A stretch of DNA of 64,000 nucleotides from Nitrospirota bacterium (GTDB taxonomy: Bacteria > Nitrospirota > Thermodesulfovibrionia > Thermodesulfovibrionales > Dissulfurispiraceae), in the NCBI GenBank assembly GCA_040758355.1, contig JBFLWF010000014.1:1-64000 (forward strand), written 5' to 3'. This document shows, one piece after another, positions 3,001 to 12,000 of this stretch (its first letter is position 1; every line of letters starts with the position of its first letter). A program made the position numbers.

Positions 3001-6000
3001 TGTATTGATACTGAACCCGGTTATACCTCGCCTGAGGGCATCAAGGATAATGTCAGCATTTCTCGATGCCGTGAATGTCAGCGCCATTGGTCTAATGGCG
3101 GCTGTTGTCATCCAGCTTGCCAGCTCAACGCTTATAGATTGGAGAGGGATTTTTATAGCCTTGGCCGCTACCATAGCAGGGATACGTTATAGGTTAAATG
3201 CGGCATGGCTGGTAGCCGGTGGAGCAGTTGCTGGATGGGTTTTAAGGGTTATTTGAAGGGGCAGGACAACCTGCCCCGCTTAGATGTTTACAATCCTTCT
3301 ACATTAATGGCATTTGCCGCAGGCATTTGTATAAGGTATGGGCATGGCCTTTCCGGGGTCGATGTCTTTGACTCCAACATTATCCTTTCTCGGCACATCA
3401 AACAGGTGGGAAGTGATATCATTCATCCAGTAGTTTTTGCCGTCTTTTCTCACAAGACCTTTGCCAAGTCCAGCACCTGTCATCATGGTCTTTGTTGCAT
3501 GGCAATCAACACAGTTGATCTTGCCCTTCTCTGCAATGCCTATCGTTGCCAACATATGCTTCTTAACATCAGCATTTGCTTTGTGACAGTTTGAGCAGAG
3601 TGAATCTTTTTCATCTCTTACCTCTGCCCTCATCTGGTGTTTGAGTCCAGTCATTCCGTGAGGGTCATGGCAGTCGGCACATGATAAGAGTTGATTGCCG
3701 TTCCTGTACTTCTTTGACTTTATCAAGTCTGTATACTGCTGGTGGTGTGATTTTGAGTGTATACCATCAGGCCAGTAATCCTTCTTTGCAGCATCCTCCC
3801 GTGTTGTGTAGTTTGTCAGATAATCATTCCTGCTTGTGCCCGGAATCATCATCTTGTTGTCTTTATTCACAGGCTGGTCGTTGTTGAGATTTCCCTGAGG
3901 CCTGCTGTGGCACTGCCCACAGATTACAGAAGCCCTCTCTGTTGATAGTTTGCCCGGGCTGACTATAGTTGATGCCTTATTTGCTTTTGAAGCCTTTACG
4001 TGGGCAGAGCCGGGGCCGTGGCATGTCTCGCAACCTATGTTTAACTCATTAGGTATGCCGTCGCCGTCGATATCAGCCTCGCCGTTGGGGTCGTTTACGG
4101 CACCCGCAATATATGCACCTTCAGGGGTCTTTGTGAGTGTGTATCCGGTGTAATGGCAGGATGCGCATTCCTTCTCAAAGGACTTTGCTATTGGGGGGTC
4201 GCTCAACTTCTTTGTCTGTTCATTATACAGCCAGTCGCCATGATAGTCCCTGAAAGCCTTTCTTGTTCTGTCGTCGTAGCTATCATCTCCGTTTGGATTG
4301 TACTGGACGAATGGGAATAGGTTCTTGCCGACCCTGTAAAGGTATCTCTGCTTGTAGAGGCCTCCGCCGTAAGTCATTTCCACGGCATACGTCCTTGCGG
4401 GGTCTGAAGCGTCTTTCATGTTCTCTGTTTTAAATTTGATTTTTCCGTCCGCATCTTTGAAAAATGTAGCCGTAAAGCTTACTGATGCGGGGTCGGAAGG
4501 AGCCTTTTCCGAGATCATGTATTTGTCGAAACTCCTGCTTTTGTCGAAGTTGTAAAAGTAGAGTTTCGTTCCTGCCATGAGTTTTTTAAGGCCGTTGTCG
4601 AAATCAGGAAATCTCGATACATCCTGAAGTTTGCTGTCATGTCCTGCGACACGAATGCCGAGTTTGTGAAGGGTCTTCTTTTCGCTCTCATACGCCTTAT
4701 GGCATGTCAGGCATTTTGATGTCCCTACATATGTCGCATCGGCAGGCACATTGCCTGATACGAGTATCTTTATAGGTTTGCCTTTGAACTCCGCTGTTGA
4801 TACGGCCTTGTTTGACATATCACCGCCGGGCAAATGTTCTTTATCCGATGGTTCTACATAGATGAAGTATTTGCCGTCTGCAACATCCGAAATCTTGAAG
4901 TTTCCCTTCTTGTCTGTGGTTGCCTTCTGGTATTTATCCCTGTTTGCAGCTAAACTGTCCTCGAGGGGCTCATCATTTTTAGAGTCCCTTTTAATCTCTG
5001 TCGGTGTCTTTGCCATGGCCTCAACATCGGATGATGGGATGAGATATACTGTTGCATTCTCAACAGTCTGTCCCGATGCGTCCTGAACTACCCCCTTAAG
5101 GGTATTGTCTCCTGCCCTTTTTCCTTCTGCCTGCGTACCGTAGACTATCAGTCCCAGTGCACTGAAAGAAATGAGCAGTAATAATAAAATCTTCCGGTTC
5201 ATTTTGTTCCTCCTTGTTTTGAATATTAAACAATTTTTGGATAATGTTATAGCTATTTTTATGCCAGTAGTAAAAATTCTTATAAATCAGCAAGATATAA
5301 AGAGGGTGTTTCTGCTGGAGAGATTTAAAAAGACGCATTAATATAATGATAAACTGTTTAACTTTCTGAAAATAAAGGAATAAACGGTGCTGTCAAGATG
5401 ACGCAGTTGTTAGTCTTTATGCTCTGTGGAAACTATCCCGTATTTTCTCATGAGCCTCTGAAGGTTTGCCCTGTCGAGTTTTAGTTTTTCAGCAGCCTTT
5501 GTGACATTACCGCTGGTTTCCTTTAAGGTGCATGATATGAAATTTTGATTGAATTCATCGATCATCCTTTTCTTTGCTTCGCTGTAAGATAGGCTGTTGT
5601 CGATTTTTTTGCATACGGTATCCTTAACCTCTGAGGGTAAATCATCTGGCATAACAGTTTCCGATGATGCGAAGACCACCAGCCTTTCAATCATGTTTTC
5701 GAGTTCCCTTACATTTCCGGGCCAGTTGTAGTTCATCAACATATCTATGGTTGAGGGATGCATTTGTTTTCTTCCCTTTAGGAAGTGTTCTATCAAAAGA
5801 GGGATATCTTCCTTTCTTTCCCTGAGAGGAGGGATATTGAGGGGGAATACATTTATGCGGTAAAAGAGGTCTTCCCTGAATGTGTTTTCATCTATAAGTT
5901 TCCGCAGGTTTCTGCTCGTAGCAGTGATTATCCTGACATCTACCTCTATTTCTCTATTATCACCCAGTTTTCTGATCTTTTTGTCTTCTATGACGCGAAG

Positions 6001-9000: not shown

Positions 9001-12000
9001 TAAAGCTTCCAAAAAAGGCGCCGTCTATGGTTTTGTTTTTAATTTCATCGTAGATGGAGCCGTAGCTGTCGAGCAGCTTTATTTTTACGTTCATATTGAG
9101 ACTTTTCGACAGGTACTCCGCAAGGGGCTTGTATCGTTTTTTCTGTTCGAAGACGTTTTGTTCAGGCAGTATGGCGATGGTAAAGGTGCTTTCTCTGATG
9201 TTTTTAGGTTCTACCTTAGCTATATCTTCGGGCTTCTGGCTGCATGAAACAGCAAGCAGACATAGGGTTATTGCAACAGAAATAAAGCGCATGATTCATT
9301 ATAACAAACCTACAACACTCTTTTGTATTGCATTGCCCTTAAGACTCTCTCCTTTGCGATTGCCTCTGCTGCCTGCCGGGGAAGGATATTTTCTTTAAAG
9401 GTCTTTTCAAGGATTAATTTTGTATTTTTCTTAATGCGCTCGGATATGGCGTCAAAAGCCTCTTTCTCAGATTTTTTCGCATACTCCATTGCAGCCATTA
9501 TCACGCCGCCAGCATTGGCAATGAAATCAGGCACTGAAAGGATGCCTTTTTTATGCAGTACCTCCTCCGCTTCTCTTGTTATGGGGATATTTGCACCCTG
9601 AAGGATCAATTTTGCTTTTACGCCTTCGACATTTTCTTTGCTTATTACGTCAGGAGTTGCAGCAGGGATTAGGACATCACAGGGTGTCAGAAAAAGCTCC
9701 TCGCATTTTTTAACCGTCCCTTTTTTGCAGTGTATGACGCTTCCCTTTTCCTCCTTTATATCCAGCAACTCTTTAACATCCAGACCATCTGGATTGCAGA
9801 TGCTTCCCTTTGTGTCGCTTGCTGCAACGACTATTGCTCCTTTTTCTGAAAGGAATTTTGCAGCAGCCTTGCCGACGCTCCCGAATCCCTGAATTGCAAC
9901 CCTTGCGCCTTTCAATGCAATGTCAGCATAAGGACATGCAATCTCTGCGCATTCTGATAATCCAAATCCTGTTGCACCCAACTTATCGAGGGGAAGGCCT
10001 CCTATTTCTTCGGGAAGTGCTGTTGCCCTTCCAATCTCATCATATATCCATGCCATGCATTCCTCATTGCTTCCCATATCAGGGCCGGGGATGTATTCAT
10101 GAAGGTCTTTTATTGCCTGAGAGAATATTCTGAAGTAATGCTCTTTTTCTGGACTTCTGGGGTCAGCTATTATCCCTGCCTTTCCTCCGCCGTGGGGAAG
10201 TCCTGCAATGGAGTTCTTCATTGTCATTGTGCGTGCAAGTCTTTTCACCTCTTCGATAGTAACATCCTGAGAGACCCGTACGCCTCCAATGGAAGGGCCG
10301 AGTGCAGTGTTGTCCACAACAACGATTGCATGGAAATTTGAGACAGGGAAGAACAACTGGATTATCTTTGAAGGCCCGATTTCCTTAATGACAGATTTAT
10401 CCATAAGCCACCTCCGATTCGATATGAATTATTACAATTTTATCATAATCATAATCTTATCATATGGGGGCTGGCTTTTCAGCTTGTTGGCGGTCCCAAC
10501 GGGATTCGAACCCGTGTTTTAGCCTTGAGAGTAAGACTGGATAGTTTTTAAGTAAATCGGCTGCTGGTAACGGTTTTGGCTAAAAGCTTTGGTGTTGTAA
10601 GGTTTGCAAGGATTTGATATTTTATGTCCTTTATCGTATTTTCTGCCCTTTTTGATATTTTCTGCTACAATTTTGCTACAGTTAGAAAAATTCATTTCTA
10701 TACGCAAAAGCAACTATTTCAGGTATAATGGTGTTAGGCAGCTATGACGGTAGAAATTATAGATAGACAATTCCATGCTAAAGGAGTTATTTACAACATA
10801 AAGGCTTTTGATAAAATATTAAAGATTCTTTATCTTTCTCATGCTATAGAAAGAATTAAAAAATGGGGTATTACAGAAGAAACAGTAGCAGAGGCATTGA
10901 TTTTACCAGAAGAAGTAATTGTAGGACATAGAAACAGATATATCGCTCACAGGAGATACGGCGACCATTTGGTCAGGGCTGTTTATGAGTATGAAGGTAA
11001 ATTGCCGATTTTAGTAACGGTATATTTTCCTTATACAGAGCGTTATTTTAAGGGAGGTGGGATTTATGAAGATCAAATACTCGGCTGATGCCGACATCCT
11101 TTTAATCGAACTCAGGGATGGCACGCCTGTAGATTCGATAGACTTAAAGGAGGGGGTGATTCTCCATCTTGACGGCGATGGATTGCCTCTTGAAATCGAG
11201 ATACTCGATGCCTCCAAACTGGCAATGCTTAAAGAGATAAGTGTTATGACGCCAATCGAAGCTGCGAGATAATACCCTTTGAGGGATGTAAAATTATACC
11301 GATGCGGTATAATCATTATGATTTGCTGCATGATCATCTAAAAATCAATAATATCCGCACAAAATCCTTGATTCTCTCATTCCGTAGGATTATAATGCTA
11401 TAAAATGCAGAAGAAGCTTAAAAGAGAGCGTTAAGCATCAAATAAATTAATATGGAACAAGAATATATAATTGCAATCATAGCTGCTTCCTCTGCACTTT
11501 GTGGCGTAATAATCTCGCAGGCCATATCAATACTTCTTTCACGTTTAGACCAAAGACATAAAAAACATATATTGCTTCGCCAAAAGTATGAAGAAATGAT
11601 GTTTTATTTTCAGGATTCATTAACATATTATAATCAGGTGGCAACCTGCAGAATTCGTGACCAATTGCTTCAGTTAAATCATTCGATTCCTGCTCAGAGG
11701 GCAATGGGTCTTGCTTTACTCTATTTTCCCAATTTCGTATCAATTCTGGATACCTATATAAGGAATCAGATTTCATATTATAACCTCGTAGTTTCGTCCT
11801 ACAATCCAAAAATCCCAGCAAATGCGGGTGCTCAGGCAAGAGTCCATAATAAAAGCCAATTGGAGGCAGCAGAGAACAATCTTTTTCAATCCAAAGACAA
11901 AATTATAGATGAACTCAAAGCAAACGTTAAAAAATATATTAAAGCTTAACGCGAAGCTGAGCTTTTGGCTCCATCGCGTTGATAGAAATATTAAAAAGGG

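Follow-up and report, generated by a model that had tools for sequence, protein, structure and literature searches.

PhnD-fold binding protein–kinase–sigma54 triads beside respiratory genes of a Nitrospirota bacterium, one with a putative heme-c sensor

Gene organization at the C14 locus

The window, the first 64,000 nucleotides of contig JBFLWF010000014.1 (C14) of Nitrospirota bacterium assembly GCA_040758355.1, contains a minus-strand signaling triad followed by a multiheme cytochrome gene. Based on Pfam matches and motif counts, the order is PF12974 protein, histidine kinase, sigma54 activator and octaheme cytochrome, and within the triad each gene overlaps its successor by 4 nt. The first gene (8372..9292) codes for a PhnD-fold periplasmic binding protein of 306 aa (PF12974, E 2.7e-56), a probable lipoprotein with a lipobox-like motif, AVSC, at residues 14–17. 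Its pocket comprises Y77, G95, Y123, T154-T155-A156, H186 and K204, with a loop at P43–F48. PtxB-type proteins are its better PDB sequence matches (E 1.9e-27 to 3.7e-27), ahead of ArrX, for which the reported E of 8.5e-19 was reproduced; the top Foldseek match of the modeled structure (pLDDT 93) is ArrX, with an rmsd of 1.7. The second gene (6759..8375) encodes a membrane histidine kinase of 538 aa, recognized from Pfam, hydropathy and motifs, that is laid out as TM1, a periplasmic four-helix bundle, TM2, HAMP, HisKA (H317) and HATPase. The bundle (7806..8300), delimited from an AlphaFold2 model, has no Pfam match and carries a CxxCH heme-c attachment motif (CMQCH, residues 102–106; 8058..8072) at the turn between helices 2 and 3. 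The third gene (5410..6762) encodes a sigma54-dependent response regulator of 450 aa, with REC, AAA+ (GAFTGA) and Fis-type HTH domains identified from Pfam and motifs. A Glu/Leu/Phe/Val dehydrogenase gene (9310..10404, minus strand; Pfam) lies 17 nt upstream of the binding-protein gene and is probably co-transcribed with the triad; it is found near the module in several relatives too.

Candidate regulatory elements, also on the minus strand, lie between the activator and cytochrome genes. First, an imperfect palindrome, TGCGTC-N5-GACAGCA (5388..5405), is a candidate activator-binding site that has only one match in a scan of the whole genome, and its TGCGTC is kept in 3/3 aligned upstream regions. 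Second, sequence and the upstream alignment identify another TGCGTC half-site at 5332..5337. Third, the cytochrome start is preceded, at a distance of 64 nt, by a sigma54 -24/-12 promoter, TGGCATAAAAATAGCT (5251..5266). Across 3/3 genomes 15 of the 16 promoter positions are invariant, and a similar site precedes 7/7 orthologous cytochrome genes.

The predicted target is an exported octaheme cytochrome c of 632 aa (3304..5202, minus strand; Pfam, motifs and PDB search) with an N-terminal carboxypeptidase-regulatory-like domain, 8 CxxCH motifs and no CxxCK. The hallmark of octaheme nitrite reductases and NrfA is the Lys-ligated catalytic heme motif CxxCK. The protein has 717 homologues; among the 120 listed, 116 have 8 CxxCH and none has CxxCK. 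It had been described as nitrite-reductase-like, an assignment that is rejected here because neither the C14 protein nor the 120 listed homologues contain CxxCK; the CxxCK octaheme of this genome is encoded on C10 (C10:27735–29402). The best PDB match of the C14 cytochrome is 6i5b (E 2.1e-9). For this and a 370-aa target cytochrome, the best solved matches are 6i5b and 6qvm, which are weak and partial (E 2e-9 to 5e-12) and carry the PDB labels 'Uncharacterized protein' and 'Multiheme cytochrome cf'; both are presumably OcwA/OmhA-type multiheme cytochromes.

PhnD-fold proteins across the genome

A genome-wide profile search identifies 12 PF12974 domains above cut-off in 9 proteins. Eight are stand-alone PhnD-fold proteins, on C3, C6, C7, C10, C11, C12, C14 and C53, and all have a kinase gene directly downstream, at distances from a 29 nt overlap to a 19 nt gap. 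The C3, C6 and C11 proteins are tandem double domains, and a sigma54 activator completes a triad for six of the eight pairs. The counts of eight proteins, three double domains and six triads had been given in the genome-wide survey's note; a ninth protein carries PF12974 as a C-terminal fusion to a chemoreceptor (C1:11741–13681), and its gene is followed by those of a Tll0287-type kinase and of a seventh sigma54 activator. The note's observation that ABC partners are lacking also holds. All eight genome-wide matches to the ABC permease family PF00528 are on C8, C13, C16 and C49, none of which carries a stand-alone PhnD-fold protein; PhnE has no match above cut-off in the genome; and the adjacent permease and ATPase that would mark PhnCDE or PtxABC membership are not found beside the PhnD-fold proteins. 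It could be argued that these proteins serve ABC transporters encoded elsewhere and that kinase adjacency is secondary, as the TIGR01098 transporter-family cut-off is passed and 16 of 80 relatives of the C14 protein are orphans. However, the lack of PhnE above cut-off, the close spacing of all eight genes to a kinase gene and the conserved pairing with signaling genes make this extremely improbable.

The paralogous domains share 14–43% amino acid identity and each has its own orthologues across the order, so that a recent expansion is rejected. The C14 kinase sensor is helical, and the sensors of the other triads' kinases are unrelated to it.

Sigma54 promoters and predicted targets

Strict sigma54 sites, defined as matching at least 7/8 consensus positions, are present downstream of 5/6 triads and of the C1 locus, versus 32/777 operon-start genes. 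If -12 variants are also counted, the genome has 39 sites, 13 of which fall in these seven neighborhoods, including those of arrA and the C12 TtrA-like operon, where the -12 element is GA or GT, not GC. A -24/-12 site thereby precedes a downstream operon of 6/6 triads. Windows downstream of orthologous activators contain a strict site in 23/56 cases, versus ~0.2 expected from shuffles; in this and the other ortholog counts, the related genomes are not independent samples. The earlier statement that no strict motif lies upstream of the reductase operons thus gives way to sites for all six triads, two of them as -12 variants, that recur in orthologues. These sites and recurring links support its broader claim of signaling rather than transport, with a separate respiratory target for each triad. 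The promoters back the regulator link and not the ligand, because a sigma54 activator of any kind often controls the genes next to it. Two features of XSR-type systems are found here: an operon that joins a stand-alone binding protein to a kinase and a regulator, with no ABC permease, and an RpoN promoter before the target operon. A third, an arsenic molybdoenzyme as target, is found at C3 only.

Conservation of the individual links varies. The C3 molybdoenzyme scores 1053 bits at full length against the ArrA model, below the cut-off of 1600, and Arr and Arx are not discriminated. The 21 C3-type loci contain ArrA (8), a TtrA-like enzyme (7), another molybdoenzyme (2) or, within the available stretch, no molybdoenzyme (4). 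In C11-type loci soxB is directly upstream in 13/13. An Fe-S subunit gene is downstream in 11/12 C10-type loci, the remaining locus ending early, and is preceded by a sigma54 site in 11/11, whereas C6-type triads have a TauE-PhsAB neighbor in only 5/11 loci. The C12 downstream link is seen in this genome and in 1/4 orthologous loci, the other three ending too early. Two target labels were revised. The C12 triad forms the end of the sqr operon, and a repeated upstream element and promoters precede the downstream TtrA-like operon; SQR, formerly proposed as the target, is rejected. Of the "two PhsA-like molybdoenzymes", C6 reaches 534 bits against a PhsA cut-off of 694 and C10 only 236, and the C10 label was corrected; the best PDB match of the C10 enzyme, 2vpw, covers residues 8–410 only. 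A literature search on the regulation of antimonate reductases found nothing useful.

Binding pockets

The pocket of AioX, ArxX and ArrX consists of Y88, C106, Y131, S161, S163, H192 and D210, and even for these three, having the same pocket residues does not determine specificity (PMC5908839, accessible text). C3 domain 1 reads Y, C, Y, S, T, H, E at these columns and matches ArrX at E 1.6e-48, and its orthologues read Y, C, Y, S, T/S, H, E/D in 22/22 sequences. The C14 protein reads Y, G, Y, T, A, H, K, and C3 domain 2, C6, C10, C11 and C12 depart from the AioX pocket as well; among the latter, Cys106 occurs only in C11 domain 1, itself without Y88, S161 and H192. The AioX pocket is thus retained in 1/12 PF12974 domains, and the differences among paralogs, which the survey's note had pointed out, are fixed inside each orthologue set. 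In 80 relatives of the C14 clade, the pocket Tyr, Thr, His and Lys are each present in 80/80 and the Asn in 78/80, as expected of a working site. The description "AioXSR/ArrXSR-like" therefore stands for architecture; likeness beyond that is unsupported, as the pocket is retained in C3 domain 1 alone, and the arr-linked C3 triad is, as had been stated, the only one of the known ArrXSR kind. A reading in which all six triads sense arsenic or phosphorus as duplicated and re-wired members of the AioX/ArrX family would fit the common fold with ArrX as top structural match and the common gene order. This is highly unlikely given that Cys106 with the rest of the pocket occurs in one of 12 domains, that the differences are fixed per orthologue set, that domain identities are 14–43%, and that the C14 kinase sensor is helical, unlike the sensors of the other kinases.

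A heme-motif four-helix sensor

The sensor domain of the C14 kinase had escaped notice in the earlier work. Its AlphaFold2 model (pLDDT 83) consists of helices at residues 2–40, 47–77, 82–114 and 118–164, with no strands. The domain family has 321 representatives. CxxCH is present in 150/150 of the best members, a figure that is partly circular because the profile rewards the cysteines; 148/150 have the form CxxCHH, and 137/148 conserve one more His. Of 151 genomes of the order that were searched, 87 encode heme-bundle receptors; the outputs joined to the bundle are of kinase, hybrid-kinase or GGDEF/EAL type. Where a genome is rich in c-type cytochromes, a CxxCH on the periplasmic side normally receives heme c, which argues for covalent heme attachment. 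Alternatively, CxxCH(H) might bind a metal ion or form a regulatory disulfide. The prevalence of CxxCHH and the further His in the family is compatible with this, as is the fact that no solved relative contains heme, but the C14 copy reads CMQCHS, without both extra histidines, and this alternative is quite unlikely.

The domain has no PF11845 match and its modeled fold is four helices without strands, which places it outside sCache_heme (Tll0287/DUF3365). Foldseek returns no match to the sensor model at E <= 0.001, and a wide structural search returns generic bundles only and no heme relative, a result that does not show the fold as new. The modeled fold may correspond to that of 4HB-type sensor domains (4HB_MCP_1, TarH), up-down four-helix bundles between two membrane helices: comparison gives Z of 14–15 to receptor domains and Atlas values of 0.92–0.93 on only 143–146 shared features, but there is no Pfam match and helical bundles score high by default. 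A literature search with coverage outside most subscription journals found no description of a four-helix sensor that bears CxxCH and is paired with a PhnD-type protein; a list of 12 heme-motif transducers is published for G. sulfurreducens (PMC8396549, accessible text), outside the sequences compared here.

Pairing and docking of binding protein and sensor

In 80 related loci collected through the binding-protein partner, a heme-bundle gene adjoins the C14-clade binding-protein gene in 57, directly downstream in 55 and upstream in 2. The remaining 23 comprise 16 orphans, 6 with heme-less kinases and 1 other. The pair is found in Nitrospirota, Desulfobacterota and Acidobacteriota that are for the most part uncultured. 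A complex model of the C14 binding protein with the sensor scores 0.75, compared with 0.01 for the best of three controls, with contacts agreeing to at least 94% and partner pLDDT of at least 89; the score mark used is reached by 116/157 solved pairs and 2/215 mismatched pairs. The modeled interface is built from residues invariant in both families. The XylFII-LytS complex of a binding protein with a four-helix bundle (5xsd, Z 15.1) is already solved, so the docking result may partly reflect likeness to it. The modeling suggests that the binding protein docks on the sensor of its own kinase.

It is conceivable that the heme alone senses redox, NO or sulfide, as in Cache-type heme-c sensors, and that the binding protein acts as a scaffold or modulator without needing a ligand. 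CxxCH is invariant whatever the output type, the targets are heme proteins, the C14 pocket lacks the AioX Cys and one Ser, and heme-c Cache sensors bind NO (PMC12889525, accessible text). Yet the pocket residues are near-invariant in 80 relatives and the same binding-protein clade pairs with heme-less kinases in six loci, and a heme-only sensor therefore appears unlikely.

Proposed mechanism

Building on the observed gene anatomy, motifs, conservation and promoters, and on the modeled folds and docking, the six triads are interpreted as paralogous anion-sensing three-component sigma54 systems, the C14 triad having a heme input (probability roughly 0.6). A free or lipid-anchored PhnD-fold protein would bind a small anion in the periplasm and dock on its own kinase, which would phosphorylate the adjacent enhancer-binding protein; this in turn would open the sigma54 promoter before the nearby respiratory operon. 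The ligands of the six triads are likely oxyanions. The C3 triad would be of ArrXSR type (arsenate), the C11 triad is tied to sox and likely responds to thiosulfate, and the C6, C12 and C10 triads would be tied to a TauE-PhsAB-like unit, a TtrA-like operon and a molybdoenzyme, respectively.

The C14 triad is the outlier design among the six. The loop equivalent to the AioX 53–61 signaling loop is predicted to meet the membrane-distal tip of the four-helix bundle, which would carry covalent heme c below the docking tip, and the output would be transcription of the exported octaheme cytochrome. Because the docked bundle would also carry the heme, kinase activity probably depends on both the anion and the redox or ligation state of the heme, and the sensor may read a dissolved ion and redox state together. 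As ligand, nitrite or nitrate is rather doubtful, a sulfur oxyanion is possible though speculative, and some other compound stands slightly below even odds. A wider proposal, held tentatively and at less than an even chance, is that the heme-bundle receptor, together with a PhnD-fold partner dedicated to it, is a mobile sensor with two inputs (anion AND redox/gas), placed at C14 over an exchangeable octaheme slot behind a conserved sigma54 promoter, and that, with the sister triads, pockets reveal enzyme substrates.

The phosphonate-transport annotation suggests a phosphorus metabolism, but no permease for it is seen in the genome; taken as sensors, the PhnD-fold genes would map the respiratory menu of the organism. 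Five binding proteins are each tied to an enzyme of uncertain substrate, and knowing what they bind would assign the enzymes and provide new parts for biosensors, as happened with ThsS and TtrS. If these readings are true, a neighboring pocket would tell the substrate of an uncharacterized respiratory enzyme, TtrA-like enzymes behind ArrX-type triads would be arsenate reductases, and the heme-bundle receptor would add another structural class to the heme-c sensors, one with a second input from a binding protein.

Comparison with known systems

The following comparisons draw on the accessible parts of the cited papers. AioXSR, ArxXSR and ArrXSR (Badilla et al. 2018, PMC5908839) are likewise encoded beside a respiratory enzyme and consist of a stand-alone PhnD-fold protein with a kinase and a response regulator; Aio and Arx have an RpoN promoter. 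Their pocket is retained by C3 domain 1 and by none of the other 11 domains, and the C3 protein differs in being a tandem double domain; the AioS sensor is Cache-like (PMC8050422), in contrast to the CxxCH four-helix bundle of the C14 kinase. As proposed for C14, the binding proteins of XylFII-LytS and TorT-TorS (PMC8050422; PDB 5xsd, 3i9w) stimulate a helical-bundle kinase sensor, although these are of another binding-protein class and have no heme motif. Heme-c sensors of the sCache_heme/Tll0287 kind, including GSU0582 and DcrA, share with C14 a single periplasmic CxxCH in a signaling receptor and are enriched in Nitrospirota (PMC12889525, PMC8396549); several Tll0287-type kinases are encoded in this genome. 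Their fold is Cache or PAS-like alpha/beta, whereas the C14 domain is all-helical, has no Tll0287 match and has a binding-protein partner. Finally, TtrSR and ThsSR (Daeffler et al. 2017, PMC5408782) serve a neighboring reductase and detect tetrathionate or thiosulfate through a PhnD-like domain; C6 domain 2 matches the TtrS model, at E 7e-19 for the protein and with a score far below cut-off. In those systems the domain is fused to the kinase, whereas here it is a separate, sometimes doubled protein encoded with a sigma54 activator.

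Binding protein–kinase–sigma54 triads

Three minus-strand genes at 5410–9292 of contig C14, each overlapping the next by 4 nt, encode a triad of PhnD-fold (PF12974) binding protein, HAMP histidine kinase and sigma54 response regulator. The gene after them is for an exported cytochrome that has eight CxxCH motifs, and Nitrospirota (Thermodesulfovibrionales) bins are the nearest named relatives at this locus. Across the genome (2.77 Mb, 99% complete), 12 PF12974 domains in nine proteins exceed the cut-off. The genome-wide survey's note described eight PhnD-type proteins lacking ABC partners, each upstream of a kinase, six of them in triads, and both counts hold. 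Eight proteins stand alone with a kinase gene directly downstream, a sigma54 activator is next in line for six of these pairs, and hybrid kinases follow the C7 and C53 proteins. None of the eight ABC-permease matches lies on a contig with a PF12974 protein, and PhnE was not found over its cut-off in this genome. The triad observation is real. All seven activators carry GAFTGA, GSFTGA or GAYTGA, and the genome encodes a protein with an RpoN box.

In the ninth protein, encoded within locus L011 (C1:8441–13681), the PF12974 domain is the C-terminus, following a chemoreceptor signalling domain, and is thus probably cytoplasmic. Downstream, the locus continues with a Tll0287-type kinase gene and one for a sigma54 activator, and a sigma54 site in this neighbourhood stands before USP-YeiH-USP-rhodanese genes. 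Genome G037 has similar fusions.

Sigma54 promoters and probable target operons

The survey had found no strict sigma54 motif near these operons; such sites do occur downstream of the triads, including TGGCATAAAAATAGCT at 5266–5251 of C14, which has exact GG-N10-GC spacing. On our own score against an 8-position consensus, with at least 7/8 taken as strict, strict sites precede a downstream gene at C3, C6, C10, C11, C14 and C1, compared with 32 of 777 operon-start genes. When GA or GT is tolerated at -12, the set grows by a site at arrA, two at C12 and another at C10, and 13 of the resulting 39 genome-wide sites fall in the seven activator neighbourhoods. Of 56 windows on the downstream side of orthologous activators, 23 contain a strict site (~0.2 expected from shuffles; one further window, outside the 56, has no room). 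Sites precede 11/11 C10-type Fe-S genes, 7/8 arrA genes and 7/7 cytochrome genes of C14-type loci (six scoring 7, one 6). A 38–39-nt upstream element exists in exactly two copies in the genome, ahead of the two C12 promoters, and ties the C12 activator to the downstream TtrA-like operon; no sigma54 site was found upstream of the ArsR-DsrE-SQR operon, whose tail is the C12 triad.

Gene neighbours in relatives, sampled from part of the matches for each triad type and labelled by best match to this genome, indicate a triad–target link that is conserved in the C10, C11 and C3 types, partial in the C6 type, and thin in the C12 type. First, soxB is directly upstream in 13/13 C11-type loci (the best 13 of 25 non-self places). 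Second, 11 of the 12 C10-type loci carry the Fe-S subunit gene and 10 that of the 958-aa molybdoenzyme; the other loci end early. Third, C3-type loci (21 of 38 places) contain ArrA in eight, a ~1,000-aa enzyme in seven and another molybdoenzyme in two, with no molybdoenzyme seen in four. TtrA is the best model for the ~1,000-aa enzyme, although below cut-off (3 of 7 scanned); As(V) reduction is reported for TtrA homologues of Anaeromyxobacter PSR-1 and Geobacter OR-1 (PMC11462812). TauE and PhsAB-like genes accompany five C6-type loci (11 of 27 places), and among C12-type loci (4 of 6 places) SQR is upstream in three and TtrA-like downstream in one, three ending early.

Several further features mark these neighbourhoods. 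Between soxA and soxB, C11:48041–53391 encodes a 1147-aa enzyme of the type II DMSO reductase family together with an Fe-S subunit and a chaperone; none of the 13 orthologous sox loci showed this enzyme. ArrA (C3:80023–82596) is 62% identical to that of the congeners G001 and G002 and 92% to that of G003, while the genes flanking arrA in G002 are 85–94% identical, which suggests exchange of the catalytic subunit. Apparently split genes occur at C3:86596–87691 (PstS-like), C12:55058–55684 (Fe-S subunit) and C6:104365–106089 (TauE), the last also split in relatives.

The C14 cytochrome and its surroundings

The C14 cytochrome had been called octaheme nitrite-reductase-like, a label that does not fit: the 632-aa protein has no CxxCK (best solved match 6i5b, E 2.1e-9), and the CxxCK octaheme of this genome is encoded on C10, adjoining napA. 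The 12 closest loci (at least 62% identity) all have the heme kinase described below; six reach far enough, with an octaheme downstream in five and a six-motif relative in one, while five end early and one is rearranged. In genomes G002 and G022, the gene behind the C14-type promoter and TGCGTC elements encodes another octaheme, of 370 aa and 25% identical to the 632-aa cytochrome; locus L062 has both in tandem, a sigma54 site before each. The regulator and promoter are conserved and the cytochrome is exchanged. Handle-labelled and named locus sets may overlap, and their counts are kept separate.

After the cytochrome, 966–3256 encodes a TauE-family exporter (TauE also follows it in G022), a small, presumably PadR-like regulator and a ChrA chromate transporter. 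A Glu/Leu/Phe/Val dehydrogenase (9310–10404) recurs near the module in loci L041, L048, L053 and L056, which may reflect either a functional link or a gene order inherited from a common ancestor. Two orthologous triads have the gene for a cytochrome with 42 CxxCH motifs immediately upstream (L069:893–4027, L071:903–4052). The ~10700–16760 segment is an integrated element in which genes for a G2P-type replication protein (14141–15298) and an integrase (15403–16590) lie next to tRNA-Glu and tRNA-Gln genes (16605–16757); it resembles an insert that is plasmid-like or related to filamentous phage.

A probable heme-bundle sensor

The periplasmic region of the C14 kinase (6759–8375) has no Pfam match and carries CMQCH at residues 102–106. 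An AlphaFold2 model (pLDDT 83) predicts an up-down four-helix bundle in which CMQCH sits in the turn between helices 2 and 3; by topology, this turn is on the membrane side. A search of 1.84 billion proteins with a profile of this bundle gave 321 representatives, with CxxCH in 150/150 members listed. The profile also matches 87 of the 151 genomes searched in the order. The binding-protein clade has 362 genome loci; in the best 80, the bundle gene is directly downstream in 55 and upstream in two, six Omnitrophota loci pair with heme-less kinases, 16 hold an orphan binding protein, all at a single conserved site, and one is otherwise. The clade pocket is nearly invariant, with Lys replacing AioX D210 in 80/80. 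Relatives of the binding protein are followed by receptors that differ in their outputs and share a CxxCHH whose position is fixed.

A complex model of binding protein and bundle scores 0.75 (best control 0.01; the mark is reached by 116/157 solved and 2/215 mismatched pairs), with contact agreement of at least 94% and partner pLDDT of at least 89, although part of this score may reflect likeness to the solved binding-protein/bundle complex 5xsd. In the model the PEQNVF loop, the aligned counterpart of the loop proposed for signalling in AioX, contacts bundle S135 and T139, both invariant in 21/21 aligned sequences, away from the heme motif. We infer that C14 most likely works as a chain: anion binding would close the binding protein, which would dock on the bundle tip as modelled; the state of a putative heme would gate passage through HAMP to H317, the HisKA histidine; and the phosphorylated activator would bind the TGCGTC elements and open the sigma54 promoter of the octaheme cytochrome.

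Related arrangements are also present. Nine of 28 related loci examined (L039, L045, L046, L053–L056, L058, L060) have two binding proteins per heme receptor: a PF04392 protein is encoded immediately ahead of the PhnD-fold gene. At L035 (G003:C1, ~550900–553200) the triad is broken, with a truncated kinase without intact heme motif, no activator and a cytochrome remnant. Two more kinases (window 19795–21411; C10:40473–41858) have a short, helical-looking periplasmic domain with CYGCH, match the profile weakly (E 0.03 and 0.0015) and possibly form a second family.

Comparison with known systems

No paper describing the heme-bundle/PhnD pair came up in our literature search. The heme-c sensors covered by the available parts of two sources (PMC12889525, PMC8396549) are Cache or PAS-like, and sulfur-oxyanion sensing by PhnD-like domains is known where the domain is fused (PMC5408782). 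The triad binding proteins are old paralogues, separately maintained, with pairwise domain identities of 14–43%. Kinase sensors group C3 with C12 (E ~2e-25) and C6 with C11 (4e-7), and the C14 sensor matches none from the other triads. The second C3 domain is closest to the C12 protein (43% identity) and, from this resemblance, may be a kinase-docking half. AioX, ArxX and ArrX share pocket residues Y88, C106, Y131, S161, S163, H192 and D210 (PMC5908839). Only C3 domain 1 matches this pocket (ArrX, E 1.6e-48), which is kept in 22/22 orthologous sequences; the remaining domains each have their own fixed variant, such as Gln at two positions in the C10 type (12/12) and two cysteines in C11 domain 1 (12/12). 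The likeness to AioXSR/ArrXSR proposed in the survey's note stands for the working mode, which the triad network shares, but family membership is limited to C3.
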